Part shown: positions 25,442-45,160 of the stretch, one piece after another
Layout: every line of letters begins with the position of its first letter
Position numbering within the stretch: the first letter of the stretch is position 1
IMG/VR virus record: IMGVR_UViG_3300025154_001556
From: a virus
Lineage: Duplodnaviria > Caudoviricetes
DNA: 64,000 nt
Reading direction: 5' to 3' (one strand)
Notes under the pieces: model-generated
Seen by the model: only the letters and a program-made list of their open reading frames with translations
Told to the model about the DNA's origin: nothing
Databases searched by the model: none
Program-made: the position numbers and the translations under genes

Positions 25442-26029
25442 CTAAGCTGCTATTTCTTTATCTATGTATTTAAATATATCTTGTAATTTACTTATTCTTA
25501 TAACTTTACTATTAATATACCATTTATTATATGGCCTGTCAATTAAAAAATTTACTGCTTTGGTGTGCTCTAACATGGATTCTATATTTACTGCATGGTC
25601 ATCTATATAAACGTTCAAACCTAACTGTCTACCCAAAAGTCCTTTATTACTACCATGCCCTAGGGCGTGTAATGAAGTATAAGGTATAGCATGAGTATCA
25701 AACCATTTTTGCGTAGCAAGTAGGGCAGCCTCAGGACGTGCTGTTATGAAATGCACATCATGTCCAAACGCAAATAATTTTTTTATCGTTTCCGATACCC
25801 CATAGTAGGGTGGTGCATTATATAAATAAGCGGTATCATTAACCCAAGCTATAATATCTTCTGCTATACTTTTATTTGTTTCATCACACTCTGTATAGTT
25901 ATTTGAAAAAAAATTATACTCCGCAAAAGTAGAAATTGTGTTTTTAACTCCCCACTTTAAATGTATGGAATCCAGTATTGATGATAATAAATCACACACA
26001 ACTTCATCAACGTCTATGCCAATGTTCAT
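25442..26029 (-). CDS. 5'(3')-deoxyribonucleotidase, HAD family
   Basis: GIDVDEV, FITAR, YIDD and RPYN. Confidence 0.85.
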   Translation of the reverse strand: MNIGIDVDEVVCDLLSSILDSIHLKWGVKNTISTFAEYNFFSNNYTECDETNKSIAEDIIAWVNDTAYLYNAPPYYGVSETIKKLFAFGHDVHFITARPEAALLATQKWFDTHAIPYTSLHALGHGSNKGLLGRQLGLNVYIDDHAVNIESMLEHTKAVNFLIDRPYNKWYINSKVIRISKLQDIFKYIDKEIAA

Positions 26030-26403
26030 ATTATGGTTTCCTTAGTAAAGTCATTAAAATGAATAGTATCTTCTTTACCTAAATAACTGCCTTTTTGTAT
26101 TTTTATAATTTCCAATGGTATTTTACCAGGATTTTCTAAGCTATGCCATTCTGTCATAGGTATATAAATACTTTGATTTTCAAAAAGTAACGTATTATTA
26201 TCACCACAAGTTACTGAGGCGGTGCCGCTAAGTACAACCCAATACTCTAAGCTATGGTAATGCATTTGTAAGGGTAGTTTTTTACCTACATCTATGGAAA
26301 GCAGCTCAACTTTAAAAGTATTCTGTTCTTTTAATAGAGTGGAAGTACCCCAGAATTGTTTTAGGCTGTCAGCACAATCTATGTTATTAATGGCCATACT
26401 CAT
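26026..26403 (-). CDS. cupin, type II mannose-6-phosphate isomerase C-terminal-like
   Basis: LQMHYHSLEYWVV...HSLENPGKIPLEIIKIQKGSYLG. Confidence 0.85.
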   Translation of the reverse strand: MSMAINNIDCADSLKQFWGTSTLLKEQNTFKVELLSIDVGKKLPLQMHYHSLEYWVVLSGTASVTCGDNNTLLFENQSIYIPMTEWHSLENPGKIPLEIIKIQKGSYLGKEDTIHFNDFTKETII

Positions 26404-31861: not shown

Positions 31862-32941
31862 TTATCCTTTAAACTCTTTTATTAAATTAACTATTTTAAA
31901 CATTTTGTGATAAAATATTTGTTCCCCAGGTTTGCCTGTTGTATATATAGGATCTATAATTACATCTAATATTGTAGAAAATTTACGTGCTTCGGCAAAC
32001 TTACTACTACGTTTCAGACAGCCTACAAAGTAACCGCATATAGCTATCCGTATACGTTCGATAGATACCGTTTTAGCTAAAACCTCATAATGTTTACAAG
32101 ATTCTAACCATTTACCTGCTAGCAAAGACTTGCTCAACTCAATTATAGCAGGAGTATTTTCTGCTGCTATACCTCCTAAAATAGCACTTGCGGAATCTAG
32201 CGTCCAGGAGCCTTCAGTAATAATAGAATCCAAAGCCACAAGAGCATCCCTGGGAATGCCCTTTGTTTCAGATATGATGAAGTTTAAAACTTCCTCATTA
32301 TAAACAGTTCCCTCAAATTCTAAAACATTTGTTAAAATAGCATATAATTGATCTTGTGGTAAAGCATCAAAAGCCACTTTTGTACAACGACTTAAAAAGG
32401 CATTACCACCTTCTTTCTTACTTTGTAATTCTTCTGGTCTGTTTGTACAGAATATAAAATAAATATATGAGTAGCCATCTTCAGCATCCTTTAATAACAA
32501 ATCTTTTGCCGCGGCAGTAAGCATGTGCGCTTCATCAAAAATGATAACCTTGTTTCTTGAATTAAAAGGTGCGAATGGTAAAGTATCCACGATATCACTC
32601 ATGTCTGATTTACCACCATCCTTTCCTACGTTATGCTCTGTAACATCCATGCTACTGCCATTAAATATAGAAAGACATGAATTACACTTTAAACAAGGCT
32701 GAGATGTAGAGGAGGCTACTGACTCACAATTTAACCCCATAGCTACTATACGGGCTGCTGTGGTTTTACCTGTACCCGCCGGACCACTAAACAGTAAAGT
32801 GTGGGGTAATTTACTATTATCCAGGTAGTTTTTTAGTATTGTTTTACTGATGTTGTTGCCCACAAATTCATCGATAGTACAGGGTCTATATGCTGTTTGT
32901 AAGCTATTACTTCTATTTTTTGATATTCTCTTTATTAACAT
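31862..32941 (-). CDS. dnaX: clamp-loader AAA+ subunit (DnaX gamma/tau-like)
   Basis: YRP, GPAGTGKT, Zn module, DEAH, SRC and RDAL. Confidence 0.88.
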   Translation of the reverse strand: MLIKRISKNRSNSLQTAYRPCTIDEFVGNNISKTILKNYLDNSKLPHTLLFSGPAGTGKTTAARIVAMGLNCESVASSTSQPCLKCNSCLSIFNGSSMDVTEHNVGKDGGKSDMSDIVDTLPFAPFNSRNKVIIFDEAHMLTAAAKDLLLKDAEDGYSYIYFIFCTNRPEELQSKKEGGNAFLSRCTKVAFDALPQDQLYAILTNVLEFEGTVYNEEVLNFIISETKGIPRDALVALDSIITEGSWTLDSASAILGGIAAENTPAIIELSKSLLAGKWLESCKHYEVLAKTVSIERIRIAICGYFVGCLKRSSKFAEARKFSTILDVIIDPIYTTGKPGEQIFYHKMFKIVNLIKEFKG

Positions 32942-33435
32942 AGACGTCTCCGGTCAATTTCGTTTTTAAGTAATTCATAAACTTCATATAAAACACCATC
33001 GCCAGAAGAAGTATTCAAGCAAACGGCTACTTTGTTTTTAACCTCTTTATTAGCATTACTTGGACACATAGAAAAAGGTATTCTATTAATGCATGGTACG
33101 TCACTATACCCAAAACCAATATAAAGTATTTCATCTAATGTTACTTCATAACGATGTAGTATCTTAGTAACAAATTCCACTTTTTCTTTTTCTGCCCAGT
33201 AAAAAGGAATATTCTTGCGTCTGAATAAGTTGTAATTTACATACTGATCTTTGGCTAAAAAAGTAAATTTAAAGGTTTTCTTTAACTCATTTACAATATC
33301 TAAATCTTGCATATTGAATGATTTAAATGGTACATTACCAAGTTCATCATAAGTGATTAACCCGTCCGTTATTACACCATCGACCTCACTCACTATAACT
33401 TTCAATTTAACTAAGTATTCATCTATGTTAATCAT
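32935..33435 (-). CDS. KdsC-like HAD phosphatase; first catalytic Asp appears as Glu
   Basis: SEVDGVITDG (cf. DVDGVLTDG). Confidence 0.75.
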   Translation of the reverse strand: MINIDEYLVKLKVIVSEVDGVITDGLITYDELGNVPFKSFNMQDLDIVNELKKTFKFTFLAKDQYVNYNLFRRKNIPFYWAEKEKVEFVTKILHRYEVTLDEILYIGFGYSDVPCINRIPFSMCPSNANKEVKNKVAVCLNTSSGDGVLYEVYELLKNEIDRRRLC

Positions 33436-33446
33436 ATCTAATCCTA

Positions 33447-34106
33447 TTAATTATAAGAAAACTTTAATTTAATCATTGTATCTTCTGCGCGGCCCCAGAA
33501 ATACTCTAAGTCTTTTTGACCAAAAACTAAACGCCACACACCCACATCTTTAAACAATGGTTTATACAAAGTTAGATCTTCCAAAGGCTCTATGAGTTTA
33601 TTTCTTGGTTCTAATTTAAAGTAATCTCCAATGTGCATTAACATAGCAGCGCCATCAATAAGCATCATATCGTAGTTAACAAAGTACATCTTTTCTAAGT
33701 TACTATTAATAAACCCTTGCACATGATCTACCCAGTACTGTACTGGGTCCGAAAACATTCTTGGATCTAGGGGATTTTTAGTTTCAGCAGTTTTTTCAAA
33801 TAAATCCTTATCACTATAAGCCTCTATATATCCCATAATGTACTGTCTAAAAGTTTTACCTTCGAAATGTTTTTTTGTGCCAGGTTGTTGCTTCCAATAT
33901 TCATAGCAATCATATAACACGTCTCTGCCATCCCTTACAACATATAGAGCTATGTCACTATCCGCAATAGCTTTCACCATACTATCTGAAAAATGCCAGT
34001 GATTTTTGTCGAAATCATTACAATAGTAATTAGCCATTATACTTCTAACAACATAAGAGGCGCCTGATTTTCTATGACAAAAAACTCTATTTATGTTCTT
34101 ACTCAT
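33447..34106 (-). CDS. sulfotransferase-domain protein
   Basis: PAPS-binding-like HRKSGASY and YVVRDGRDV. Confidence 0.72.
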   Translation of the reverse strand: MSKNINRVFCHRKSGASYVVRSIMANYYCNDFDKNHWHFSDSMVKAIADSDIALYVVRDGRDVLYDCYEYWKQQPGTKKHFEGKTFRQYIMGYIEAYSDKDLFEKTAETKNPLDPRMFSDPVQYWVDHVQGFINSNLEKMYFVNYDMMLIDGAAMLMHIGDYFKLEPRNKLIEPLEDLTLYKPLFKDVGVWRLVFGQKDLEYFWGRAEDTMIKLKFSYN

Positions 34107-35272
34107 TTTTTATGCTCCCATAATATCTTTGGCATAACAACTGATTTCAACTCTTTTGGTACTATGTCTTTAATAGTGACCATTGTATATTCTATCTCTT
34201 GTTTTATACTTCTTGTAGGAGTATAACCTAAACTAGGTAAAATGTCAACAACATAGTTGTAGTAATGTTCTCCTGTATACTCATTTCTTGGAGAAGGGAT
34301 ATGCTGTGTAGAGCTGGGTATCCCTAATTTAGTAGCTACTTCTTCTACAAATTTAGTTATATCAATTATTGAATGCCACTCAGATAACTGATTCCATACC
34401 TGTACTTTGCCCGCCGCTGGTGGATTGTTTACAGCTATCTCTAATGCCTGCACACTATCATTTAATGATATAAACCCTCTTTGGTGTAGCCCCTCTCCAT
34501 AAACAGTCATTGGGATACCTAACAGTGTTTGTACAATAAAGCGATTAATGACAGTGCCTCCTGCTTCGTCGCTATCAAGTCTACTATATACCTTAGTTTT
34601 ATCTATTTCATCCGTATACGATCCGAAAACAACAGACTGTTGTACGTCGGTGCATCTCAACCCCCAAGTGCGCGTTAAAAAATCTATTATATAAGTAGAA
34701 GCGGTTTTTGAACAATGATATAATGATCCCGGCCTTCTAGGGTAAATCATTTCATTGGACATCCTGCCCTTATGATTAATCTTAATGTAACCCTCTTCGA
34801 TATCTATATTACTATAATGATCATATTCACCTGTTGTTCCTATGGTAATATAATGCGCATCTGGTGTATGTGCCTTCATATACCACAACAAATTATTTGT
34901 AGGTATTATATTATTCCTCAAAGTAAATTCAGCCTTCTCTTGTGAGATCTGACTGAATGGGGCAGAGGGTATGTGTGCCAAATTAATGATAGTGTCTGGT
35001 TTATACGTAACAAACAGTTCCTCTACTTTGTTACTATCTTGTAATAAGTCAATAGCATAAAATATAAAATCTCCCAAAACACTAAATTTACTAATCTTTT
35101 CTACCATGGGTAAAACAGGTGTAGCAGACTTAGAGGTCATTAGATCTTGTATCCAATATCTTCGTAAAAAGTTATCTACACCAATTACTTTAAATCCCTT
35201 ATTTAACAAACGTTGTGTTAAAGCATTGCCAATGTAACCATCGCACCCTAAAAGTAAAACTGTGTTATTCAT
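34103..35272 (-). CDS. sqdB: UDP-sulfoquinovose synthase (SqdB/SQD1/Agl3-like SDR)
   Basis: GCDGYIG, VDNFLRR, PSAPFS, GTTGEY, YHCSK, WGLRCTD, GTVINRF and GLHQRGF. Confidence 0.88.
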   Translation of the reverse strand: MNNTVLLLGCDGYIGNALTQRLLNKGFKVIGVDNFLRRYWIQDLMTSKSATPVLPMVEKISKFSVLGDFIFYAIDLLQDSNKVEELFVTYKPDTIINLAHIPSAPFSQISQEKAEFTLRNNIIPTNNLLWYMKAHTPDAHYITIGTTGEYDHYSNIDIEEGYIKINHKGRMSNEMIYPRRPGSLYHCSKTASTYIIDFLTRTWGLRCTDVQQSVVFGSYTDEIDKTKVYSRLDSDEAGGTVINRFIVQTLLGIPMTVYGEGLHQRGFISLNDSVQALEIAVNNPPAAGKVQVWNQLSEWHSIIDITKFVEEVATKLGIPSSTQHIPSPRNEYTGEHYYNYVVDILPSLGYTPTRSIKQEIEYTMVTIKDIVPKELKSVVMPKILWEHKK

Positions 35273-35273
35273 A

Positions 35274-36011
35274 TTAAACCCCCAAAGAAATCCTAAAAAG
35301 CTGCGATATCACCGTGGTATCTTTTAAAATAATTTCCTTATTTTGCTGTTTAAACCATTCTGGAAATACTTTATTATACAGCTGGTAACACCAAACCGTT
35401 TTATCGTGCTCATACAGAACATTAGTAAAGTATTGTTGCCAATGTGAAAAAGGTATAGAACCAACTAATCCAAGTGATTGGGTTATGGCAGAATGTTTAC
35501 GCACCAATGGTGTGAGTATACGTGAGCCATTTTCCCCCCAACTTAATGTTTTTTTAGTATCGATAAGTGTATCTTGTTGTTCTATATACTCATTGATTAA
35601 TACACCGTTAGGTATGCTTGCCATTACACCTACTGATGCAAGGCCTTCATGCTGGGTTCTATATAAAAAATCTTTTCTATTTAATAAAGGTACAAGTTCA
35701 TCGGGAGAACGCATAACAATTGTATCAGCATCGAGCCATATACCGCCATACTTTTGTAAAAGTTTAGCTCTAATATAATCCGCTTTAATACTAATGTTCT
35801 CTCTGGGATTATTGGACACTTTTAATTTATTTAAATCTGTTCTTAATTCAGGTATTAAGTCGTGTATATTTAAGTTATCTACAAGTTTAAATACAAAGTT
35901 ATCTGTATTACAATATTTATCCATAGAATCAAAACATAATTCTAAGTATGATGGTGTTTTTAAGCCGGCGGGGTTTTCCCAATAAGTCCAAACAGTAATA
36001 GGAATTTGCAT
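35274..36011 (-). CDS. capsular polysaccharide synthesis-type glycosyltransferase (DxD)
   Basis: WTYW, ADYIRAKLLQKYGGIWLDAD. Confidence 0.85.
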   Translation of the reverse strand: MQIPITVWTYWENPAGLKTPSYLELCFDSMDKYCNTDNFVFKLVDNLNIHDLIPELRTDLNKLKVSNNPRENISIKADYIRAKLLQKYGGIWLDADTIVMRSPDELVPLLNRKDFLYRTQHEGLASVGVMASIPNGVLINEYIEQQDTLIDTKKTLSWGENGSRILTPLVRKHSAITQSLGLVGSIPFSHWQQYFTNVLYEHDKTVWCYQLYNKVFPEWFKQQNKEIILKDTTVISQLFRISLGV

Positions 36012-36623
36012 TTAAAGCCTCCATAAACCAAAAATCCGTTTAAACCCGGACTCTTCAATAAAAGTTAGTGGAGCTGATAAATTAAATGGATCTTTTTCTA
36101 AATTAATTTCTCTAAACCCATATTCAGATGTGTATAGTGATCGCTTGCTCGTAAATTTTTCAGAGGATGTCGGTGTATTGCTGATCACATTTCTATATGA
36201 GGTGGTCATTAAATAAGGTGAACCACTGGCTTTAAATAATTTTAAAGCTTTAATTACAGAAGCATCAGGTAAATGAAATAAACAATCTCTACAAATAATT
36301 AAATCAGTCCTAGGTAATGGCTGATTAACTAAATCAAATTCAATAAAAGAAACCTTAGGATATTTTGTTTTATTGACATCTAACATTTCTTTGTTTATAT
36401 CGTAACCTACATATGTAGCAGTACCTAAATCTACTAAGTTCATCCAAGCAAAATCCCCACAACCGGCGTCACTAATGCTTCTAATATTATAATTTTTTAG
36501 TTGGTCTCCGATAAATTCCCTAATTTTAGTAGTAACACTAACTGCAGATCCAATACCGCAAGGTAAATTAATCTTGCAATTATCTTTCCACAATGCCGTA
36601 GCTATTTTTTTATTTGCGTTCAT
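36012..36623 (-). CDS. class I SAM-dependent methyltransferase
   Basis: CGIGS, DAGCGDFAW and DLIICRDCLFHL. Confidence 0.85.
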   Translation of the reverse strand: MNANKKIATALWKDNCKINLPCGIGSAVSVTTKIREFIGDQLKNYNIRSISDAGCGDFAWMNLVDLGTATYVGYDINKEMLDVNKTKYPKVSFIEFDLVNQPLPRTDLIICRDCLFHLPDASVIKALKLFKASGSPYLMTTSYRNVISNTPTSSEKFTSKRSLYTSEYGFREINLEKDPFNLSAPLTFIEESGFKRIFGLWRL

Positions 36624-37171
36624 TTTACAATCTCCAATAGATTAACAAAATTATTAAATGTGGTTACTTTACCCCAAGCCTTCAAATCTTCTGTACTCCA
36701 ACCATAAACATGTTGTTCATAAGGGTTACCCGCAACACCACCACGTTTTTGAAATCTATTTAAAGTAGGGGTAGTTATAAAGGCATTCTTACATTTATCC
36801 CGGACCAGATTCATCATTTTAATGCCATCTTCTTTTTCAAAATGCTCTACAACATCGCAAAAAGTAATTAAATCATAGTTACCTAATGTAGGTAATATAT
36901 CAAGTGCATTGCCAATAAAAATTTTATTGTATATTTGTCTATGTATTTCAGTGATGTACTCTTCATATACTTCTATGCCATGTATAACAGTCTCAGGTTT
37001 TCTAAAACGATTGTTCCAAATATCTGTGTATTCTCTGGCTAAGAAACCATATTTTCCAAACCCAATCCCTATGTCTAATACGGTTTTTGGTTGTAAGTCG
37101 ATGATTCTGGAAGCTATGTGTGCTATGGGGTAGGGTCTCGATGTTGGCATGTTATGCTCCTTTATTTTCAT
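36620..37171 (-). CDS. class I SAM-dependent methyltransferase
   Basis: VLDIGIGFGKYG and YDLITFCDVVEH. Confidence 0.85.
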   Translation of the reverse strand: MKIKEHNMPTSRPYPIAHIASRIIDLQPKTVLDIGIGFGKYGFLAREYTDIWNNRFRKPETVIHGIEVYEEYITEIHRQIYNKIFIGNALDILPTLGNYDLITFCDVVEHFEKEDGIKMMNLVRDKCKNAFITTPTLNRFQKRGGVAGNPYEQHVYGWSTEDLKAWGKVTTFNNFVNLLEIVK

Positions 37172-37796
37172 TTATTTGGGTATTAATAACTCTATTGGAC
37201 AAAGGTATATTTAAAAAAGTTAATAACTTAGATTGTGTGGTTTCATCATTCAATACTTCTTCCGTATTAAATAACATAAAATTGTCTTTAAACGCTGCAG
37301 CATATTCTGCTGCTAAATTATAATAGTCGTCCCAATATTGTTCTATTGCATCTATTTTTGGTAGATTATATTTTGGATAACAATTATCATAAATTGGATC
37401 AAGGCGCCACAAGTTACTGTCCCAATAAATACTATCCCTAGCTGTCCAATGGTTTCGTTCTTTTAGCCCTGTTTTAGTGTTAGCAGCGGTCTTTTTAATA
37501 TAGCTAGCAACAGTGTCTTTTTTAGTTCGTTTAAGACAAATAAATTTTGAGTTTGGGAATTTATCCAATATGTATATAACATAAGGTAAATGCCAAAAAG
37601 ATACATCACATGACGAAAAGCCCCAGGGCCTATTTTGCATATACGCAATGGTTTTATCTATGTGTCCTTTGCTAAACTGCCATGGAGTTATTACTAACTC
37701 ATGAGTTGAAGTAAAGTCGTTCTGCAGACCTAACAATTCTTTAAGAGATACAGTACCGCATCTACCTGTACCAAGACCAAAAATAAGTTGTTTCAT
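37152..37796 (-). CDS. sulfotransferase-family protein
   Basis: GLGTGRCGTVSL and KFICLKR..KDTVAS. Confidence 0.72.
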   Translation of the reverse strand: MKQLIFGLGTGRCGTVSLKELLGLQNDFTSTHELVITPWQFSKGHIDKTIAYMQNRPWGFSSCDVSFWHLPYVIYILDKFPNSKFICLKRTKKDTVASYIKKTAANTKTGLKERNHWTARDSIYWDSNLWRLDPIYDNCYPKYNLPKIDAIEQYWDDYYNLAAEYAAAFKDNFMLFNTEEVLNDETTQSKLLTFLNIPLSNRVINTQINENKGA

Positions 37797-38569
37797 TAAA
37801 GCACCTCATAGTATTTTTTGTATTTTTCTATGACCCCTTCATTTATTACACGTTGGGTCCAACCTCTATGTGGGGCCTCAGCCAAAGCGTCCATAGTAAC
37901 ACCTATATCAATTAAACTTTTGTTTCTTATATTATGATCTTTCCATAAGCGTTTGGCTAATACACGTGTAGCCATACCTATTACAGGAAGAATTATATCA
38001 CAAGTTTGTAGTTTGTCAAGTATTTCTTCCATTTTACGATCTAAGGCATAATAAGCATTGTCCACCCCTGTAAAAGATACTGTGTGTTTAATATTAAACA
38101 TCTTTTCTATAAGGTTACTATTACACAAAGGTTCGCCGGCTACCAATAATACTTTTTTATCATAGAACATAGTATCAATAAATTTTACAAACCACTCTAA
38201 TTTATGTTCAAAAGCATATTGAAATATTAACGCATGATAACCTTCGTCTGGGTTACCTCGTAGTAACTTCCAAATATGTCTAAGCTGCCCATCCAGAATT
38301 TGCTGCTGTACTCTATTTTTTATCCAAAAATAACTACCGCTCCCATCTTCAAAGGAACCGGCAGTACTAGCTACTACATAATTTAGATCGAATATTTGTA
38401 AAGCTTCCCTTAATTCCTGTCGTAGTTTAACACTATTTCTATGCCTTTGTTCATTAGGTGCTCCTTGTATAAGAGTTAAATCTCCATCACCAAACCTTAC
38501 AAAGTAAAATGGGGAACCCCCATTTATCAATGTGTCTAAATGATTACTTGTTTGTTCTATTGTTTTCAA
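37796..38569 (-). CDS. GT-D fold (DUF1792-like) glycosyltransferase
   Basis: YFVRFGDGD, GMATRVLA and IDIG..MD. Confidence 0.72.
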   Translation of the reverse strand: MKTIEQTSNHLDTLINGGSPFYFVRFGDGDLTLIQGAPNEQRHRNSVKLRQELREALQIFDLNYVVASTAGSFEDGSGSYFWIKNRVQQQILDGQLRHIWKLLRGNPDEGYHALIFQYAFEHKLEWFVKFIDTMFYDKKVLLVAGEPLCNSNLIEKMFNIKHTVSFTGVDNAYYALDRKMEEILDKLQTCDIILPVIGMATRVLAKRLWKDHNIRNKSLIDIGVTMDALAEAPHRGWTQRVINEGVIEKYKKYYEVL

Positions 38570-38581
38570 TTAAATTACTCC

Positions 38582-39472
38582 TTATATTAAGGTAAGTTCC
38601 CCAGACCAAGCGTCTAATTGCGATGCAAAATCTACATAATCTTTATAGTTAGGATCTAATTGCATCATTTTGGCTGCGTTTAATGCAGTATCTCTCAAAG
38701 CCTCGACACGATCTGCGAACTCCGGGTGCTTAAAAGGTAGTTTACCAATCCTGTTTTGACCATAAAATCCTATGTGTATTTGTCTGTCGCACATAGGAGA
38801 ATAAGATCTTAAACCTTCTTCAATAAAAGCAGTATCTATTAGTCTATTAACAAGACCGTCCCAACCAATATGCTGAAATAAATTTTTACGCTCCGCCCTG
38901 TATTTAGATCTTTTGTCATCCCCATTGCGTTTATTAACCAAATGGATGATGGTCTCTCTATTAGTATAATAATCATATGTGGCATAAGGCCTTACATACT
39001 TATTAAAAAAATATCCGTTCATTAAACAGGCCGGCGCTTCAAATAGGTTTGTAGCTTGCACACCAGTTATACTTGTATTAGGCACTAATCTACGACTAGC
39101 ATTAATAACAGAAAATTTATTACCCTTTAATAAGTTTAATGCTGTATTCATATATGTAAAGTAAGTTTCATGCAGCAAACAATCATCTTCTATGTTTAAT
39201 ACATAATCTGCGCCTTCAAAAAAAGCCTGCTTAAACCCTTCTAAAATATTACCCCAACCAAAATGCCTAAATGATCTTGTAACAACTGTTTTTTCAAAAG
39301 GATAATAATCTTGAATTAGCTCAACACATTTAGGATCAGCGTTGTGTTCTAATGCAAATAAAGTACTATAATTGTCTGTACTTAGTTGCTTACGTGCTTT
39401 TATTTCATACTCCATAGACAGATAAAGCATCTCTGGTCTATTATATACAGCCCTTAATATACACCCATTCAT
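38582..39472 (-). CDS. GT-A fold glycosyltransferase
   Basis: RAVYNRPEML and IEDD. Confidence 0.65.
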   Translation of the reverse strand: MNGCILRAVYNRPEMLYLSMEYEIKARKQLSTDNYSTLFALEHNADPKCVELIQDYYPFEKTVVTRSFRHFGWGNILEGFKQAFFEGADYVLNIEDDCLLHETYFTYMNTALNLLKGNKFSVINASRRLVPNTSITGVQATNLFEAPACLMNGYFFNKYVRPYATYDYYTNRETIIHLVNKRNGDDKRSKYRAERKNLFQHIGWDGLVNRLIDTAFIEEGLRSYSPMCDRQIHIGFYGQNRIGKLPFKHPEFADRVEALRDTALNAAKMMQLDPNYKDYVDFASQLDAWSGELTLI

Positions 39473-39481
39473 CTACTTACC

Positions 39482-39964
39482 TCATTTTTTATATACTTCC
39501 AATATAAAATTAGATCCTTCAAAGCTATGATTTGAAGGTATTAAATTAGCAGCTATACATAAATTAGATAGCCATTTGACATCAAACATAACAAAGTGAA
39601 AGTTACCTGGGTAATCTTGTCCACCAAACATATGGTAAGAAACAAACTTAGCATCACCTGTTTGTCTATAATATTCCACAGCCCATTGCATATTTGGTGT
39701 ACGAATTTCCATTACACCGCCATGCTTTAATAATCTGGCCCATTCTTTAAGTAGACCAATAGTTTTGCTTATTGGGAAATGTTCTATTATATCGCTCGCA
39801 AGTATATAATCAAACTGCTCATTGGGCAGGTCTACTGCCTCAACATTACCTACTATATCAACACCTTCTAAGGGGCGTATATCTAAGTTTACACACGTAT
39901 ACCCTTTGGGATATTCTTTATATATGCGGTTGCCACAACCAATGTTTAAAGTTTTTTTAGTCAT
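39482..39964 (-). CDS. SAM-dependent methyltransferase (type 11)
   Basis: LNIGCG and DIIEHF. Confidence 0.85.
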   Translation of the reverse strand: MTKKTLNIGCGNRIYKEYPKGYTCVNLDIRPLEGVDIVGNVEAVDLPNEQFDYILASDIIEHFPISKTIGLLKEWARLLKHGGVMEIRTPNMQWAVEYYRQTGDAKFVSYHMFGGQDYPGNFHFVMFDVKWLSNLCIAANLIPSNHSFEGSNFILEVYKK

Positions 39965-39970
39965 AATATA

Positions 39971-41089
39971 TTATTTTAATTCAAGTTCTTTAAGTAATTT
40001 TGTACCAATGGTGGTTAAAGAAAAATTAGTATTTATATACTGCTTTAATCTTTGCCCTGTTGTTTTGGCGGCCTCTTTATTGTCATAAACAAACTTCATT
40101 AAGTCAGCGCCATTTTTCACATCAGGCTCTGCCCAAAGTTGATCACCTCTATACCATGGACTCCATGGCATACCATAAACGGGTGTTAGTGTGTAATTTA
40201 CTAAATAGCTATTATCTTGTTTGGCATATTCTGTCACGCCGCCAAACCCTGTAACTACTATGGGATTACCAAAAGCTCCGGCCATAAAAGGCCCAATACC
40301 AAAACCCTCACCGCGGTCTAATGAGGCGTAACAATCACCTCTTTTATGTAATCCATTAACTTCATCTTCTGTTAGCATGTCTGGTAATAAATAAATGGGT
40401 GGATATTTGTCCATAGGAGTAATAGCTTTTAGTTTTCTTATGGTAATTCTTATGGCATCTTTTTCTTCCTCGCTGTAATCACTACGATAAGTTTTTAATA
40501 CAAGAGCCACATCTTCATTATTCTGAAACGCATGCCAGTATGCCTTTATTAATGCTGTCGGATGTTTTCTTTCAGTCCATTGAAATATAGCATAAAACAT
40601 ATAGGTATCTTTGGATACTCCTTTTACATCAAAAGGAGTAGATGTGGCTACATGACTTAAATCCATACAATGAGGCACTACACCAATAGGGATTGTAACA
40701 CCACTGTGTTTAAACACCTCTTTGTTCCATTCACAACCAACTAAAACTTTATCAACAGTACTATTAATGTAGCTCTTCCAGTCTGGATGCAATAGATCTG
40801 TTTCCCATATAGTGTAACCAACATTTTTCTTGTCTTTTTCTCTGTATCTAGACCAGAATTCAGGTGTCGTGTGTATAATTACTGTATCGTAGTCCACCTT
40901 AGCATCCATTAACTTTGTTAAAAGAACCCCATCAGCACCTAAGTCTGGTTTTGACTTTTCAAAAGAAATTGGATCTAACGTTATAGGTACACCAAGTGAA
41001 TGGAGTGCCAGAATATTACCACGACAGGCTTTTGCATAACCTGAATTGTCTAGAATTGGCCCTATATATTTTATACCTTTAATTGTCAT
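39971..41089 (-). CDS. GT-B (GT4-like) glycosyltransferase
   Basis: SGY, WET, RKHP and RGEGFGIGPFMA. Confidence 0.88.
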   Translation of the reverse strand: MTIKGIKYIGPILDNSGYAKACRGNILALHSLGVPITLDPISFEKSKPDLGADGVLLTKLMDAKVDYDTVIIHTTPEFWSRYREKDKKNVGYTIWETDLLHPDWKSYINSTVDKVLVGCEWNKEVFKHSGVTIPIGVVPHCMDLSHVATSTPFDVKGVSKDTYMFYAIFQWTERKHPTALIKAYWHAFQNNEDVALVLKTYRSDYSEEEKDAIRITIRKLKAITPMDKYPPIYLLPDMLTEDEVNGLHKRGDCYASLDRGEGFGIGPFMAGAFGNPIVVTGFGGVTEYAKQDNSYLVNYTLTPVYGMPWSPWYRGDQLWAEPDVKNGADLMKFVYDNKEAAKTTGQRLKQYINTNFSLTTIGTKLLKELELK

Positions 41090-41169
41090 TTCTAAACCTT
41101 ATAGAAAAGTGCCTAATCCTGGTAGACACTATTAAATACAATATGATTCCAGGAAACCTGTTTTTATAC

Positions 41170-41433
41170 TTACATTTGTGGACCAGAGGGCATAGGACCA
41201 CTAGCGCTATCGGGACTAACATCAAAGGATACTCTTGCAGTCTCTGATTTAACCAAACGACTCTCATCCAGCCATGTCCAGTCAGGGATACTTCCATCCG
41301 TGTTTATTCTCTGTGGCTGCAGTCCATAATGAATACAACCAGTAGAATAGAAGGCTACAACCATTGCAACACCATCTAAACCTGTTACTTTGTCTTTTAA
41401 TAAATCACCGTTAGTAAACTTAGCTTCTCTCAT
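41170..41433 (-). CDS. hypothetical protein
   Basis: ORF track; SD GGAG. Confidence 0.65.
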   Translation of the reverse strand: MREAKFTNGDLLKDKVTGLDGVAMVVAFYSTGCIHYGLQPQRINTDGSIPDWTWLDESRLVKSETARVSFDVSPDSASGPMPSGPQM

Positions 41434-41487
41434 AATAATGCTCCTGTAAATCTAATTGTTAATGTTTTACATACAACTCTGATTATT

Positions 41488-41763
41488 TTACTTCCATGTG
41501 TCTTCTTTTATATCCTCTTTCCAAAGATGATAAGTAAGGGGTGTTCTATTTTCTCGGGCAGAATAATGGTTATATTCATCTTTGGTGTCCTTTATGAATT
41601 GTAAATACGCGTGATATTTACAACAAGCAAAACACCTATACTCACTTTCTAAAATTGTCCATGCGCCTATTGATGTTAAGTAGATAACAACATATGGGCG
41701 TACAAAATATGTCTTAGTGTTAGTAAAAAGCTTATTAAATAATTTAATAATTTTATCAAACAT
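41488..41763 (-). CDS. hypothetical protein
   Basis: ORF track. Confidence 0.5.
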   Translation of the reverse strand: MFDKIIKLFNKLFTNTKTYFVRPYVVIYLTSIGAWTILESEYRCFACCKYHAYLQFIKDTKDEYNHYSARENRTPLTYHLWKEDIKEDTWK

Positions 41764-41796
41764 AATAATCCCCCATTTAAATACTGCTATAATATA

Positions 41797-42048
41797 TTAT
41801 AGTGCTAAGCGGACGGTGGTTATATCTAACAAAATTTCACCATCGGAACCGCTGGTTTGTAATTCTTCACCAGTAACTTTGTATATTATAGCAAAATAAT
41901 TGCACAAAGTCAATATCTCTTTTGAAACAGATAACCCAATCTCCACTTTACCTGTTAAATGATTTATAGATGGCTTTATATTACCTGAGGCTATTATGTT
42001 TGGCTCGTGTGGATTATTAGTTCCACGATAGTATGTTTCAAACATCAT
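41797..42048 (-). CDS. hypothetical protein
   Basis: ORF track. Confidence 0.5.
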   Translation of the reverse strand: MMFETYYRGTNNPHEPNIIASGNIKPSINHLTGKVEIGLSVSKEILTLCNYFAIIYKVTGEELQTSGSDGEILLDITTVRLAL

Positions 42049-42062
42049 TGTATCTCGTTGAC

Positions 42063-42239
42063 TTAATACATACAGTAACAGCTCATATAAGAGTAGTTGT
42101 GCCTTTTAACAACAGATTTAGGTTTAGGACGATCGTAGATGCGTTCTTTCCAATGATCTTCATCACCACAAACAGGACAAACTGCATGATGAAATAGATA
42201 CCAATAAAGTCTATTTTGCTTTTTTTTACTATTCTTCAT
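42063..42239 (-). CDS. small Zn-ribbon protein (CPVC)
   Basis: Likely start is MKNSKK, overlapping the thyX end. Confidence 0.5.
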   Translation of the reverse strand: MKNSKKKQNRLYWYLFHHAVCPVCGDEDHWKERIYDRPKPKSVVKRHNYSYMSCYCMY

Positions 42240-43023
42240 CTTGTTTCTCCAAAGAAGTTTTCCACATAGTGTAACCAGCGAGGACCTCCTCTTTGGTGGG
42301 GTATTTACCACAACTACGTGCTTTATTTTCTGAACAGTAGCCGGCTTGTTGACATTTAGGACCAACATTTTTAAAAACTACTGGTAGTGCTTCCTTACAT
42401 AAAGCCAGCATCTCATTGGCTACATTACGAATTTCCCATTGCGCTAATGTACAGCAGCGTAAACCGAAAAAATGTATTAAGCTCACACAATTTTTAGTTG
42501 TCACTAATCTTGTGATAGCAGCATTAGGCATAAGGTAACGCGCATCCTCACTCTTGATGCTCAATTCTTTGAGTTCATTATATGCTTGCTGTATATACTC
42601 CAAGGCATCGATATAAATTTGCTTAGCAACAGCATGCTTATTTATAGAGGGTGGAATGACAAAATTATTGATATCAAACTCTCCACCATTAGCCACATAC
42701 CGTTGGGACTGCTGGGAATAGCTAGCCATGCGGTGACGTACATGTTGATGGCTATCCGCGCGGGATATACCGTCAATAGCAAATGTAAATTTTACATGTT
42801 CGAGAACACTTGTGTGACCTGATTTAAATAAGTGGTTTATCAACCCCTCTATTTCTTTGTCCGTACACAAATGACCATCTTTGTTATCTGTAATAGACAC
42901 AAAGCCGTCCTCGTCTTCTTGCCAGGAGTCTCCTACCCATCCTTCGGAGTAACACTGTCTACCGGCAGCAAATAGTAATTTCTCAGCATTAGCTGAAACA
43001 TCTAGTAGTTTAACTCTTAACAT
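42229..43023 (-). CDS. thyX: flavin-dependent thymidylate synthase
   Basis: GHTSVLEH and RHRMASYSQQSQRY. Confidence 0.93.
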   Translation of the reverse strand: MLRVKLLDVSANAEKLLFAAGRQCYSEGWVGDSWQEDEDGFVSITDNKDGHLCTDKEIEGLINHLFKSGHTSVLEHVKFTFAIDGISRADSHQHVRHRMASYSQQSQRYVANGGEFDINNFVIPPSINKHAVAKQIYIDALEYIQQAYNELKELSIKSEDARYLMPNAAITRLVTTKNCVSLIHFFGLRCCTLAQWEIRNVANEMLALCKEALPVVFKNVGPKCQQAGYCSENKARSCGKYPTKEEVLAGYTMWKTSLEKQDEE

Positions 43024-43033
43024 AGTGTCACCT

Positions 43034-43195
43034 CTATCCACCAAAACCACAGAATGGGCAAAATTTTAAACTTTTAGAATATAGTCTTTTACAAAGATCA
43101 CACGCGTACTCTACGGTTGTGTTGCTATATGCTTCTTCTATTTCTTTTTCATCAATTTGTACTTGCTCCGGTTTAAGTATAAGCATTTCTTCCAT
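43034..43195 (-). CDS. small Zn-ribbon protein (CDLC...CPFC)
   Basis: ORF track; start is probably MEEM. Confidence 0.55.
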   Translation of the reverse strand: MEEMLILKPEQVQIDEKEIEEAYSNTTVEYACDLCKRLYSKSLKFCPFCGFGG

Positions 43196-43220
43196 TTTAC
43201 TATCCTTATAGCTAAGCAGC

Positions 43221-43244
43221 AAAAAGGGGACTAAGCCCCTCTTT
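43221..43244 (-). terminator. rho-independent terminator
   Basis: AGAGGGG-CTTAGT-CCCCT followed by TTTT. Confidence 0.65.
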
Positions 43245-43248
43245 GTTA

Positions 43249-44799
43249 TTAAAAAGTTTCTGAGTTTATGACGTTGGTGGTCTGTGTTGCTAACATTTCT
43301 GCCACTTTACTTTTTTGTTCAAGCATTGATTTAGATACAGCGTCAAAAGTTTTAACCCAAGTATTACCAACTGCTGTTTGCCAATCTAGGGTACCTGTAA
43401 CAAATTTATACGCCTGCTCGGCCTTAGTCATGGCCTCTTCATAATTATTATACACATGTAGCATCTTGTCGATTAGATCTTCTACATCAACTAATGGGCG
43501 TCTTACTTCGTTGTCATAAGGAAGTACTGTCCATAGACTGGGGTTAGTACCGCTTTTTACAAGGTAGCCCACATCCTCAGTAATATTTTCTATCATTGCT
43601 GTGTTTCTGGGCATAATAACGGGTGTTTTAGCGGCCATTGCTTCTATCCATGAAAGCCCCCACCCTTCACCAAGACTTGCGCTAACAACGCAATCAACAC
43701 AGTTATACAGCATATTAACTATTTCTCTCGGATAGCCTTGATTAGGCCCAAAATTTTGAGGAAATATGACGTCATCGGTTAAACTAAAATCATACGCTCT
43801 ACATACTTCTGGCAGATTCCATCCCTGATCTTGTTTAGCCATATGCAGATATAATAAAGTATTTGGTTCTTTTTTACGTAACTCATGGAATGCTTGGATA
43901 GTCCTAGGAATATCCTTACGTTGCTGATTTCTATTTAGGTTCATGTAAATAAATTTATCAGCATGACGACCAAAGTAACGTTTTCTAAAATCAGCTACTT
44001 CATCCTTAGGTAATGGTTTGTATTCATTGATATTAACCCCATGAGGAATTACAGACATATCACCCACAATTGGGTATGTTTCCTGACATAGCTTTCTACC
44101 AAAGTTAGCGAAAGTAATTACTTCATCACAGAAACTAACATTTTTTATCCACTCTGGCTTAGGTGTACCATCAATGGGAAAATACACCACGGATTTAAAC
44201 GGCGTCTCCCTATTCTTTTTAAGATGTGGAATCAACTCAGGTAAAAAATCCAAAATAAAACTGTCCTGCATAAAAAATAGAATATCAAAATCCATTTTAG
44301 GAATCATATTAACTATCTTTTTACGACCGTAGGGATCTCTTTCCGCATTATTACCTACCGGCCAAATCTTATATGGAAAATCATGTGGATCTCCCCAGTA
44401 ATTTATACCCAACACTTCGATGTCATATCTACCCGTTTTATACAACGCTTCTAAAACATTACGGCTGACTGTTGCAAAACCTGTTGCCAAATATCTTCAT
44501 ATAAGAACGCTACTTCTTATACCGCTTCTTGGGCTGCTGCATGTTTCCATGCAAGTTGAGACTATATCATCATCCACTTGGGATGCTACGTGCTTCCACC
44601 CGCTTGGGTGTACTTCCTTATATGGAATAGTCGTTGCACCTTCCTCTATAAAGAGGCTTGGCTCAGGATTGTCCTCGACTTGACGTTAGGAGTTCCCCTG
44701 AATTCTCGTAGTTATTCGGTACATATTGCTATGTAAAGCTGCACATTATTTACAGGAGGGGGTGTCCATATAACATAAAATTTTAATCTTTTTTCCCAT
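43249..44799 (-). CDS. intron-split GT4-like glycosyltransferase, 428 aa, join(44752..44799,43249..44487)
   Basis: Spliced N-terminus MGKKIKILCYMDTPSC/ATGFATVSRNV; RNQQRK and GEGWGL motifs; SD AAGGAG before the exon 1 ATG. Confidence 0.88.
44488..44751 (-). mobile_element. group I intron (264 nt) without an ORF
   Basis: P1 CTGT|A with TGCAG (U-G at the splice site); P3 CTACG/CGTAG; core GAATTCAGGGGAA, AATCCTGAGCC, GGTGCAACGACTA, GATATAGTC; P9 TGCATG-GAAA-CATGCA; terminal G. Confidence 0.9.
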
Positions 44800-44808
44800 A
44801 GAAACTCC

Positions 44809-45160
44809 TTAATTGTTTAGTAATCTTCCACGATTACGCATTAAAATTGAATACCAGTTCTCGTGCCAAATTCTATCAGTATTAGCACGAGAATTACAAC
44901 TTCTACATAGAGTTATTAAATTAATAGGTCTGCAATCCTCCTTGTCATAATTTATATGATGGATAGTTAACTCCTTAGTTATACCAAAACAGTAAGGATT
45001 TCTACAAACGTTATTATCTCTATATTTTATCGATTCTTTATAAATCTTATCTTTCCAGGCACCACAATTTAGTGCTTGCGTTTATATAAATGTCATCAAT
45101 AAGTGTGTAACCATACTTTTCAAACTGTGCTTTTATAAAGTCAATTGTATGTCTTTTCAT
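44809..45160 (-). pseudogene. HNH homing endonuclease remnant (internal deletion or frameshift)
   Basis: The frame from ATG 45160 (MKRHTIDFIKAQFEKYGYTLIDDIYINASTKLWCLER) stops early. Another frame with no start encodes CGAWKDKIYKESIKYRDNNVCRNPYC...TIHHINYDK...NLITLCRSCNS. Confidence 0.8.

Follow-up and report, generated by a model that had tools for sequence, protein, structure and literature searches.

The IMG/VR virus record IMGVR_UViG_3300025154_001556, analysed here as one window of 64,000 nucleotides (the whole stretch of DNA considered), carries within its replication block an island of glycan-synthesis genes that includes a homologue of UDP-sulfoquinovose synthase (SQD1). Its core consists of 12 genes, all on the minus strand, which abut or overlap one another between positions 32935 and 41089 with gaps of -20 to +12 nt, and the gene of a HAD-fold protein at its edge overlaps dnaX by 7 nt. 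A first-pass annotation, made from the letters of the window, had listed here a KdsC-like HAD protein, two sulfotransferases, a UDP-sulfoquinovose synthase, five glycosyltransferases of three folds and three methyltransferases, mostly with overlapping stops and starts, between dnaX and the nuclease genes. Each of these gene classes was recovered on the minus strand (Table 1): family and structure matches support two GT-A, one GT-D and two GT-B glycosyltransferases, while the sulfotransferases, methyltransferases and synthase are supported by family, motif or fold evidence. The overlaps hold for the 12 core genes, and the flanking genes agree with the proposed location, with DnaX, PolA, dUTPase/DCD, RNR, phosphomannose isomerase, NT5C and RNase HII on one side and a PD-(D/E)XK nuclease, RuvC, DnaJ, DnaG, DnaB, RecA and the beta clamp on the other. 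What has to be revised is the extent of the island, given earlier as about 12 kb: the contiguous glycan core measures 8.2 kb, and about 2.1 kb, occupied by small open reading frames (ORFs) and ThyX, separate it from the second GT-B gene (GT-B2). The earlier end coordinate, 44799, is explained by GT-B2 (43249-44799), which is located on the far side of ThyX and is interrupted by a group I intron. Judging from this enzyme content, it is likely that the island makes a sulfoquinovose-containing glycoconjugate of some kind.

The source is an uncultured groundwater phage with a genome of about 237 kb. The window is phage-like, with 74 of its 76 ORFs on the minus strand and a GC content of about 35%. 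Public assemblies contain an identical SQD1 protein in 102 blocks, the longest of the contigs recorded for it measuring 236.8 kb, and the island was present at 100% of sampled words in 18 runs from 10 studies (16 groundwater and 2 soil metagenomes). As a stand-in for the whole phage genome we used G001, a 234-kb IMG/VR contig (which contains L001; L044-L055) with a completeness of 89%, whose gene order follows that of the window at a DNA identity of 79-89%; a more distant relative is L060, a 119-kb scaffold. Among GenBank phages, no match was found to the island by megablast, nor to the GT-D enzyme and the second GT-A enzyme by tblastn.

Table 1. Features of the island and its surroundings, with positions in the window
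Feature	Position	Strand	Evidence
Type II phosphomannose isomerase, stand-alone 125-aa cupin	26026..26403	-	NCBIfam GMP_PMI C-terminal region E 6.9e-37; Pfam MannoseP_isomer
KdsC/YrbI-fold HAD protein, KdsC/KDN-9-P phosphatase family	32935..33435	-	PDB KdsC-family matches; dN/dS 0.075
ST1, sulfotransferase	33447..34106	-	Sulfotransfer_1 18.5 bits; HRxSGA and VRDGRDV motifs; 4-nt overlap with SQD1
SQD1, UDP-sulfoquinovose synthase homologue (SQD1/SqdB/Agl3-type SDR)	34103..35272	-	PDB 1i24/1qrr
Variable cassette	35273..36839		Only interruption, within the island, of the 82-86% DNA collinearity with G001 (blastn, window against L001)
GT-A, GT32-like, abuts SQD1 start, in variable cassette	35274..36011	-	Caps_synth 41 bits; Gly_transf_sug 34 bits; DAD motif
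MT1, class I SAM methyltransferase, in variable cassette	36012..36623	-	Methyltransf_25 and Methyltransf_11 above gathering score
MT2, class I SAM methyltransferase	36620..37171	-	Methyltransf_23 21.7 bits, below threshold; VLDIGIGFG SAM motif
ST2, sulfotransferase	37152..37796	-	Sulfotransfer_3 35.5 bits (gathering 27); GTGRCGT and LKRTKKDTVAS motifs; dN/dS 0.064
GT-D-fold glycosyltransferase	37796..38569	-	Pfam GT-D 43.3 bits, GT-D-like 28.5 bits; weak NCBIfam SP_1767 family match
Second GT-A, 296 aa, GNT-I/MGAT2/GT2-like, EDD motif	38582..39472	-	No Pfam or PHROG match
MT3, class I SAM methyltransferase	39482..39964	-	Methyltransf_23 37 bits; Methyltransf_11 35.5 bits
GT-B1, glycosyltransferase	39971..41089	-	phrog_2170 E 1.7e-19; Glycos_transf_1 weak
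Small ORFs, 72-101 aa, function unassigned	41079..42368	-	No family matches; not assignable to the pathway
ThyX thymidylate synthase, canonical; interrupts island, not a glycan gene	42229..43050	-	Thy1 208 bits, full length; RHRxxSxxxxSxR motif
GT-B2 exon 2 (GT4 family)	43249..44487	-	Glycos_transf_1 48 bits; phrog_2170 E 4e-48
Group I intron in GT-B2, 264 nt, no ORF	44488..44751	-	Rfam RF00028 83 bits (gathering 50), E 1.3e-19
GT-B2 exon 1, 16 codons	44752..44799	-	MGKKIKILCYMDTPSC; N-terminus match to TJE1

Enzymes of the island

The identity of the putative synthase is central to any reading of the locus. Residues 4-386 of the phage protein align over the full length with residues 13-393 of Arabidopsis SQD1 (PDB 1i24; E 1.3e-74), the GxxGxxG site for NAD is kept as GCDGYIG, and GTTGEY and YHCSK line up with GTMGEY and YHLSK of 1i24, with the catalytic Thr retained. 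Across 28 homologues Y185, H186, S188 and K189 are invariant and the Thr is nearly so; in the 1qrr structure we take the corresponding catalytic residues to be Thr145, Tyr182 and Lys186, with His183 as the residue specific to SQD1. Among NCBIfam models UDPsulfquin_syn (NF041015) scores 354 bits, and the next family 49 bits.

SQD1 is translationally coupled through its 4-nt overlap to ST1, whose Sulfotransfer_1 score lies under the Pfam gathering score of 22 and whose assignment leans on structure. A Foldseek search of PDB with its AlphaFold model (predicted local distance difference test, pLDDT, 71) gave 53 matches at E<=1e-3, and all of the 50 that were listed are PAP(S) sulfotransferases; the Atlas structure neighbours are likewise sulfotransferase clusters (template-modelling score, TM, 0.72-0.74). 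The motifs HRxSGA and RDGRDV are invariant in eight homologues. ST1 is also the most constrained gene of the region, being 97% identical in G001 with a ratio of nonsynonymous to synonymous substitution rates (dN/dS) of 0.007, although dS is saturated.

The fold of the HAD protein is that claimed by the first-pass annotation, with 21 PDB matches, of which those to the KdsC family range from E 5e-13 to 1e-8, and NCBIfam matches that stay below threshold. On the other hand, motif I (DxDGV), which reads D(I/V)DGV in solved enzymes, is SEVDGV in the window and G001 and CEVEGV in L060, so that the nucleophile Asp has become Glu in the first two and both Asp residues have become Glu in the third, and the Mg-binding GDD of motif IV is GFG in the window and G001 and GSN in L060. 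Since the nucleophile and the Mg-binding acids are lost, it is better not counted as an active sugar-phosphate phosphatase and is probably a pseudo-phosphatase. Its gene nevertheless stands directly before dnaX in every case, in the window and in the relatives, under purifying selection.

Among the glycosyltransferases, the GT-A enzyme next to SQD1 has an Atlas model with a predicted TM score (pTM) of 0.90, and its neighbours are mostly viral Gly_transf_sug clusters, giant viruses included. The second GT-A enzyme was recognised by its Atlas feature score of 0.99 and by structural similarity (TM 0.67-0.80) to GT2, GNT-I and MGAT2 clusters, and a 36% identical homologue adjoins SQD1 in another phage contig, L015. 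Streptomyces phages and rudiviruses encode homologues of GT-B1, at about 25% identity, that carry a glycosyltransferase annotation; in Streptomyces phage Annadreamy (L056, 4145-7664) two tandem distant relatives adjoin three tRNA-Thr genes, ThyX and RNR. GT-B2 is 38.5% identical to a glycosyltransferase of Tetrasphaera phage TJE1.

All of these enzymes appear to work in the cytoplasm. No membrane-spanning segment was found in the proteins encoded between 29.9 and 51 kb, save in one doubtful 72-aa ORF. The first-pass annotation had stressed that no flippase or polymerase is visible, and it is true that none of the enzymes has a membrane segment; this is weaker evidence than was implied, because the glycosyltransferases of lipopolysaccharide (LPS) core and O-unit assembly are soluble too and depend on export by host machinery. 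Its further remark that no gene for synthesis of 3'-phosphoadenosine 5'-phosphosulfate (PAPS) is present extends beyond the window, as adenosine 5'-phosphosulfate (APS) kinase and PAPS reductase are both lacking in the collinear G001. Neither these two nor KdsA and KdsB were found in the window lineage, so that, lacking APS kinase and PAPS reductase, the phage must draw on its host for both sulfite and PAPS. A sigma-70 promoter scan of the region was uninformative, its counts being the same as in shuffled sequences.

Conservation and related islands in other phages

The island genes are not scattered in relatives: their order is kept in G001 and in L060. SQD1 is 86% identical in G001 and 75% in L060, and ST1 is 79% identical in L060. 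Against G001, dN/dS of the island genes ranges from 0.007 to 0.17, similar to RNR, DnaX and ThyX, with dS largely saturated. The island is thus under strong purifying selection in its relatives. The small ORFs beyond the core are also kept in G001, under weaker constraint (dN/dS 0.14-0.45). A separate observation concerns MT3, GT-B1 and the small ORFs (39482-42048), where dS against G001 is 0.1-0.5 and that of the neighbours 1.1-2.0, which suggests a recent recombination tract.

The variable cassette departs from this pattern. It comprises MT2, MT1 and GT-A in the window; a diverged MT2 and a GT-A of the same family with 34% identity in G001; and a different methyltransferase-like protein of 230 aa, an MT2 homologue and a GT-A with 31% identity, still of that one family, in L060. 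MT1 has no homologue in L001 or G001, and MT2, whose C-terminal half lies within the cassette, is 48% identical in both G001 and L060. The whole looks like a serotype-style variable cassette within a conserved pathway.

Close SQD1 homologues occur in 21 viral contigs of IMG/VR, for which CheckV completeness implies genomes of about 200-250 kb, and some 2,700 further homologues occur in metagenomes. Their clade is large and known from metagenomes only, and the long contigs that we examined are all phage-like. A scan of genome contigs returned short contigs only, binned to unrelated taxa of metagenome-assembled genomes (Parcubacteria, WOR-3, Woesearchaeota); we suspect these to be mis-binned phage DNA, and they give no pointer to a host.

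The context of SQD1 in these phages ranges from minimal to elaborate. In L004-type modules it is paired only with a conserved 226-aa protein, GT-A-like by its motifs and without a Pfam or NCBIfam match, and the pair sits between a primase-like (Toprim/DnaG) gene and a gp5-like baseplate hub; hhalign shows no relationship of this protein (A1) to either GT-A enzyme of the window or to ST1. In L032-L034, L059, L009, L013 and L015, the few kb around SQD1 also contain one or two sulfotransferases together with methyltransferases, GT1/GT4 and GT-D-like enzymes and sometimes GT9, and some of these lineages also carry APS kinase or KdsA/KdsB-like genes. A phmmer comparison of the window island with the islands of the second lineage recovered SQD1 as the only ortholog. 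The association is therefore one of enzyme classes rather than of orthologs, as in cellular glycan loci. As it recurs in several large-phage lineages, the module is a widespread trait and no one-off.

Some of these islands have noteworthy contents of their own. Those of L032-L034 and L059 contain a papain-like C1 peptidase and adjoin QueC, MazG, dCMP deaminase, a KdsA-like gene, radical-SAM/SPASM and dGTP_diPhyd, a context that may include 7-deazaguanine DNA chemistry. In L015 (2934-4895) a Dam-type N6-adenine methyltransferase, split by an intein-like splicing domain, is found inside an SQD1/sulfotransferase/GT9 island.

Predicted glycan and candidate acceptors

In the pathway that we propose, the SQD1 homologue would, as its homology supports, convert host UDP-glucose and sulfite into UDP-6-sulfoquinovose. 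Five soluble glycosyltransferases would use UDP-sulfoquinovose and nucleotide sugars of the host to build a short oligosaccharide, with the phage phosphomannose isomerase possibly supplementing the sugar supply, and the best candidate for the sulfoquinovosyl transferase is the GT32-like GT-A enzyme abutting SQD1. ST1 and ST2 would put O-sulfate on from host PAPS and up to three S-adenosylmethionine (SAM)-dependent methyltransferases would O-methylate the sugars, giving a strongly anionic, partly methylated glycan; the KdsC-fold protein is more likely a sugar binder or scaffold than a phosphatase. Fine structure would differ between close relatives, because the cassette of GT-A and methyltransferase genes is swapped in each. 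The enzyme inventory thus predicts the sulfonated, sulfated and methylated oligosaccharide that the first-pass annotation had in mind. Of the acceptors that it named, virion proteins, phage DNA and the host surface, DNA turns out to be the least supported, for want of a known attachment handle and given the avoidance of restriction sites described below.

We tentatively read the island as a phage-encoded, fully cytoplasmic glycosylation pathway with a virion protein as its likeliest acceptor. The choice of acceptor is the weakest step, and we rank the virion first with somewhat more reserve than that. On this reading phage structural proteins would be modified, as in the virion glycosylation of mycobacteriophages and giant viruses. 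Several observations point that way. In Synechococcus phage S-CBS4 the GT-B2 homologue is found between the portal gene and that of the head protease, where a second glycosyltransferase and a methyltransferase accompany it; in TJE1 it is immediately upstream of the terminase genes, and its companions are a methyltransferase and a nucleotide-sugar epimerase. Most members of the GT-A family are viral, giant viruses among them. The characterised GT-D enzymes that we know of extend O-glycans on proteins (serine-rich-repeat adhesins), and the weak NCBIfam match of the island's GT-D is to the SP_1767 family. In addition, the cassette is exchanged from one close relative to the next, which suggests that the structure is exposed and under diversifying pressure.

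A number of points weigh against this reading. The island lies in a replication operon rather than in a morphogenesis module, and among ORFs of at least 80 aa in the window and G001 no convincing Ser/Thr-rich tails or tracts, such as have been described in other phages, were found, the maximum being 55-60% Ser plus Thr per 20 residues. Soluble glycosyltransferases would suit LPS-core or O-unit assembly equally well. SQD1, at 354 bits, falls under the NCBIfam equivalog cut-off of 575 bits for NF041015, and the plant GEQRS segment is replaced by AHIPS in its clade. ST1 has D, N or E in eight homologues at the position where, by our hand alignment, the SULT motif RNPKDVAVS presumably places the Ser that contacts the 3'-phosphate of PAPS, and its donor could differ from PAPS. 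More generally, the enzyme activities, the glycan and the acceptor are all predictions from sequence.

The most serious rival, which we consider unlikely, is remodelling of the host envelope. The enzymes would work on the cytoplasmic side of the inner membrane and modify a lipid-linked intermediate of the host, such as lipid A-core, an undecaprenyl-linked O-unit or capsule precursor, or a glycolipid, and host MsbA, Wzx or ABC exporters would bring the glycan to the surface, where it would mask receptors; the effect would be superinfection exclusion, or progeny kept from sticking to debris. Such a role would fit the timing of an island that is apparently co-transcribed with early/middle replication genes, as the cell would be changed before lysis, and it would fit soluble glycosyltransferases, which are typical of LPS-core assembly. 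The KdsC fold hints at ulosonic-acid chemistry, the SQD1 island of a second large-phage lineage has GT9 (the heptosyltransferase family) with KdsA-like and KdsB-like genes nearby, a GT9 gene is also present in L015, and the cassette exchange recalls the diversity of O-antigen loci. However, GT9, KdsA and KdsB were not found in the window lineage, its KdsC-fold protein lacks the catalytic residues, and there is no membrane-anchored or polyprenol-phosphate priming enzyme; nor do we know of a phage-targeted host LPS or capsule that contains sulfoquinovose. DNA hypermodification, in which a sulfo-glycan on a modified base would block restriction or CRISPR in the manner of T4 glucosyl-hydroxymethylcytosine (hmC) or the poly-arabinosyl-5-hydroxycytosine (5hoC) of RB69/DLP3, appears highly improbable. 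It would account for a position within a replication and nucleotide-metabolism block with ThyX inside, for QueC, dCMP deaminase, MazG and dGTP_diPhyd next to the SQD1 islands of other lineages, and for a weak GT4-conflict match of GT-B2; RB69 and DLP3 do show nucleotide-sugar gene clusters with several glycosyltransferases acting on DNA (PMC13326640), and, according to one paper, phage systems of glycosyltransferase and sulfotransferase for nucleotide modification have been reported (PMC10829341). Yet all characterised phage DNA glycosylation begins from an attachment handle on the base (PMC13326640), and neither a ThyA-family hydroxymethylase or hydroxylase, nor TGT/DpdA, nor QueC was found in G001, 89% complete and collinear as it is, while ThyX is canonical in appearance; a search for TET/JBP carries no weight, its control having been silent. 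In addition, no GGATCC site occurs in G001, where 19.5 are expected, or in the window, where 6.2 are; CTATAG is likewise missing from the window, with 25.1 expected, but occurs 95 times in G001 (126 expected). Complete, strain-specific avoidance of palindromes is what type II restriction of unprotected DNA would be expected to produce, and it suggests that the two close relatives are under different restriction pressures. DNA is disfavoured as acceptor because no known handle enzyme was found and both sites are wholly avoided in the window.

We give the least credence to an auxiliary role in sulfolipid metabolism, in which SQD1 and one GT-B enzyme would make sulfoquinovosyl-diacylglycerol (SQDG) to replace phospholipid and free phosphate for phage DNA. 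SQD1 catalyses the committed step towards SQDG, the lipid transferases SQD2/SqdX are GT-B enzymes of family GT4, GT-B2 is itself a GT4 enzyme, and it gives weak matches (27-35 bits) to diacylglycerol glycosyltransferases. Those matches, however, are more than tenfold under the curated cut-offs and generic for GT4; the same holds for the nature of the matches of GT-B1, so that no SqdX-like transferase is identifiable. GT-B2 is 8 kb from SQD1 with a terminator-like hairpin between them, the SQD1 partner in L004-type modules is the 226-aa GT-A-like protein and no GT4, and 11 of the 13 enzymes would be left unexplained; SQDG synthesis has no use for the other four glycosyltransferases, the two sulfotransferases or the three methyltransferases.

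Returning to the virion as acceptor, its fullest form would have the phage coat its own particle with a polyanionic glycan that combines C-sulfonate (sulfoquinovose), O-sulfate esters and O-methyl groups, with a serotype-like cassette tuning the coat between strains and the dead KdsC-fold protein and ultra-conserved ST1 as dedicated components; this complete picture we regard as possible, if rather doubtful.

Neighbouring features and comparison with known systems

Several features of the locus stand apart from the pathway itself. The terminator-like hairpin mentioned above was noted after GT-B2. In GT-B2, exon 1, MGKKIKILCYMDTPSC (44799-44752), joined to exon 2 (ATGF..., from 44487), matches the uninterrupted N-terminus of the TJE1 protein, KRILWYSDTPTCATGF, and the predicted spliced product has 428 aa. 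The boundaries are those of a T that ends exon 1 and a G that ends the intron, and G001 carries the same intron (83.5 bits). Directly upstream of GT-B2, on the minus strand (44809-45160), lies an HNH-endonuclease-like remnant with an HH..N...LC..CN motif and no clean ORF, which may be a decayed homing endonuclease. The gene of the phosphomannose isomerase stands outside the island, between those of RNR and NT5C, and may have a role in sugar supply.

The window contains seven tRNA genes, including a tRNA(CUA) of amber suppressor type at 1236-1306. Recoding of TAG as Gln, considered on account of this tRNA, was rejected: no ORFs of the island become joined, and TAG is not the stop codon of any of the 12 core genes, whereas PolA and ThyX do end in it. 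The PolA ORF has 1064 aa in G001 and 638 aa in the window, owing to an in-frame insertion of 1.28 kb (window 30289 / L001 14976-16254) that could represent an intein or some other mobile insert.

Phages are known to encode glycosylation of their DNA (T-even phages) and, as found recently, of their virions (mycobacteriophages). To our knowledge, synthesis of sulfonated or sulfated sugars has been shown for no phage. The literature bears out the first-pass annotation here, as no pathway to sulfonated or sulfated glycans that has been characterised in a phage came to light; the only report of a virus-encoded enzyme that we found is of a putative UDP-sulfoquinovose synthase, described as a putative auxiliary gene, in a Mu-like virus (PMC7785012).

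If our interpretation is correct, the island would provide the first example of a phage-made sulfated glycoconjugate, and large environmental phages would channel the sulfite and PAPS of their hosts into a charged glycan. This would bear on virion surface chemistry, such as adsorption to minerals or cells and recognition by defences or grazers, as well as on superinfection exclusion and the cycling of organosulfur in groundwater.

With plant SQD1 (1qrr, 1i24), SqdB and Agl3 the phage protein shares a full-length SDR alignment, GxxGxxG, the catalytic Thr and Tyr-His-x-x-Lys, whereas its gene lies among sulfotransferases, methyltransferases and glycosyltransferases of several folds, with no SQD2/SqdX-type partner identified. 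In the N-glycan pathway of Sulfolobus (Agl3; S-layer, archaellin) sulfoquinovose is likewise part of a protein-linked glycan and not of a lipid, although the archaeal route is dolichol-linked and uses a membrane oligosaccharyltransferase, a component that the island does not have. We know of no sulfated DNA glycan. T4 glucosyl-hmC and the arabinosyl-5hoC of RB69/DLP3 (PMC13326640) resemble our case in combining phage nucleotide-sugar synthesis with soluble glycosyltransferases amid early/replication genes, and differ in the ThyA-homologue hydroxylase or hydroxymethylase, not found in G001, and in the restriction-site avoidance seen here.

The cassettes of S-CBS4 and TJE1 are in or next to the head-packaging module, contain no SQD1 or sulfotransferase and are themselves uncharacterised, yet their glycosyltransferases are 33-38% identical to GT-B2 of the window and have a methyltransferase beside them, along with a further glycosyltransferase in S-CBS4 and a nucleotide-sugar epimerase in TJE1. 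For a virion acceptor, the glycosylation of mycobacteriophage capsids and tail tubes (Freeman et al. 2023, in the account cited in PMC12619734) offers a precedent. The likeness to the Che8/Corndog type is one of gene classes, with no Ser/Thr-rich acceptor tails found here, and consists in a cassette of soluble glycosyltransferase and methyltransferase genes without export genes. To this arrangement the island, about three times larger and set in a replication operon, adds a sulfo-sugar synthase and two sulfotransferases.

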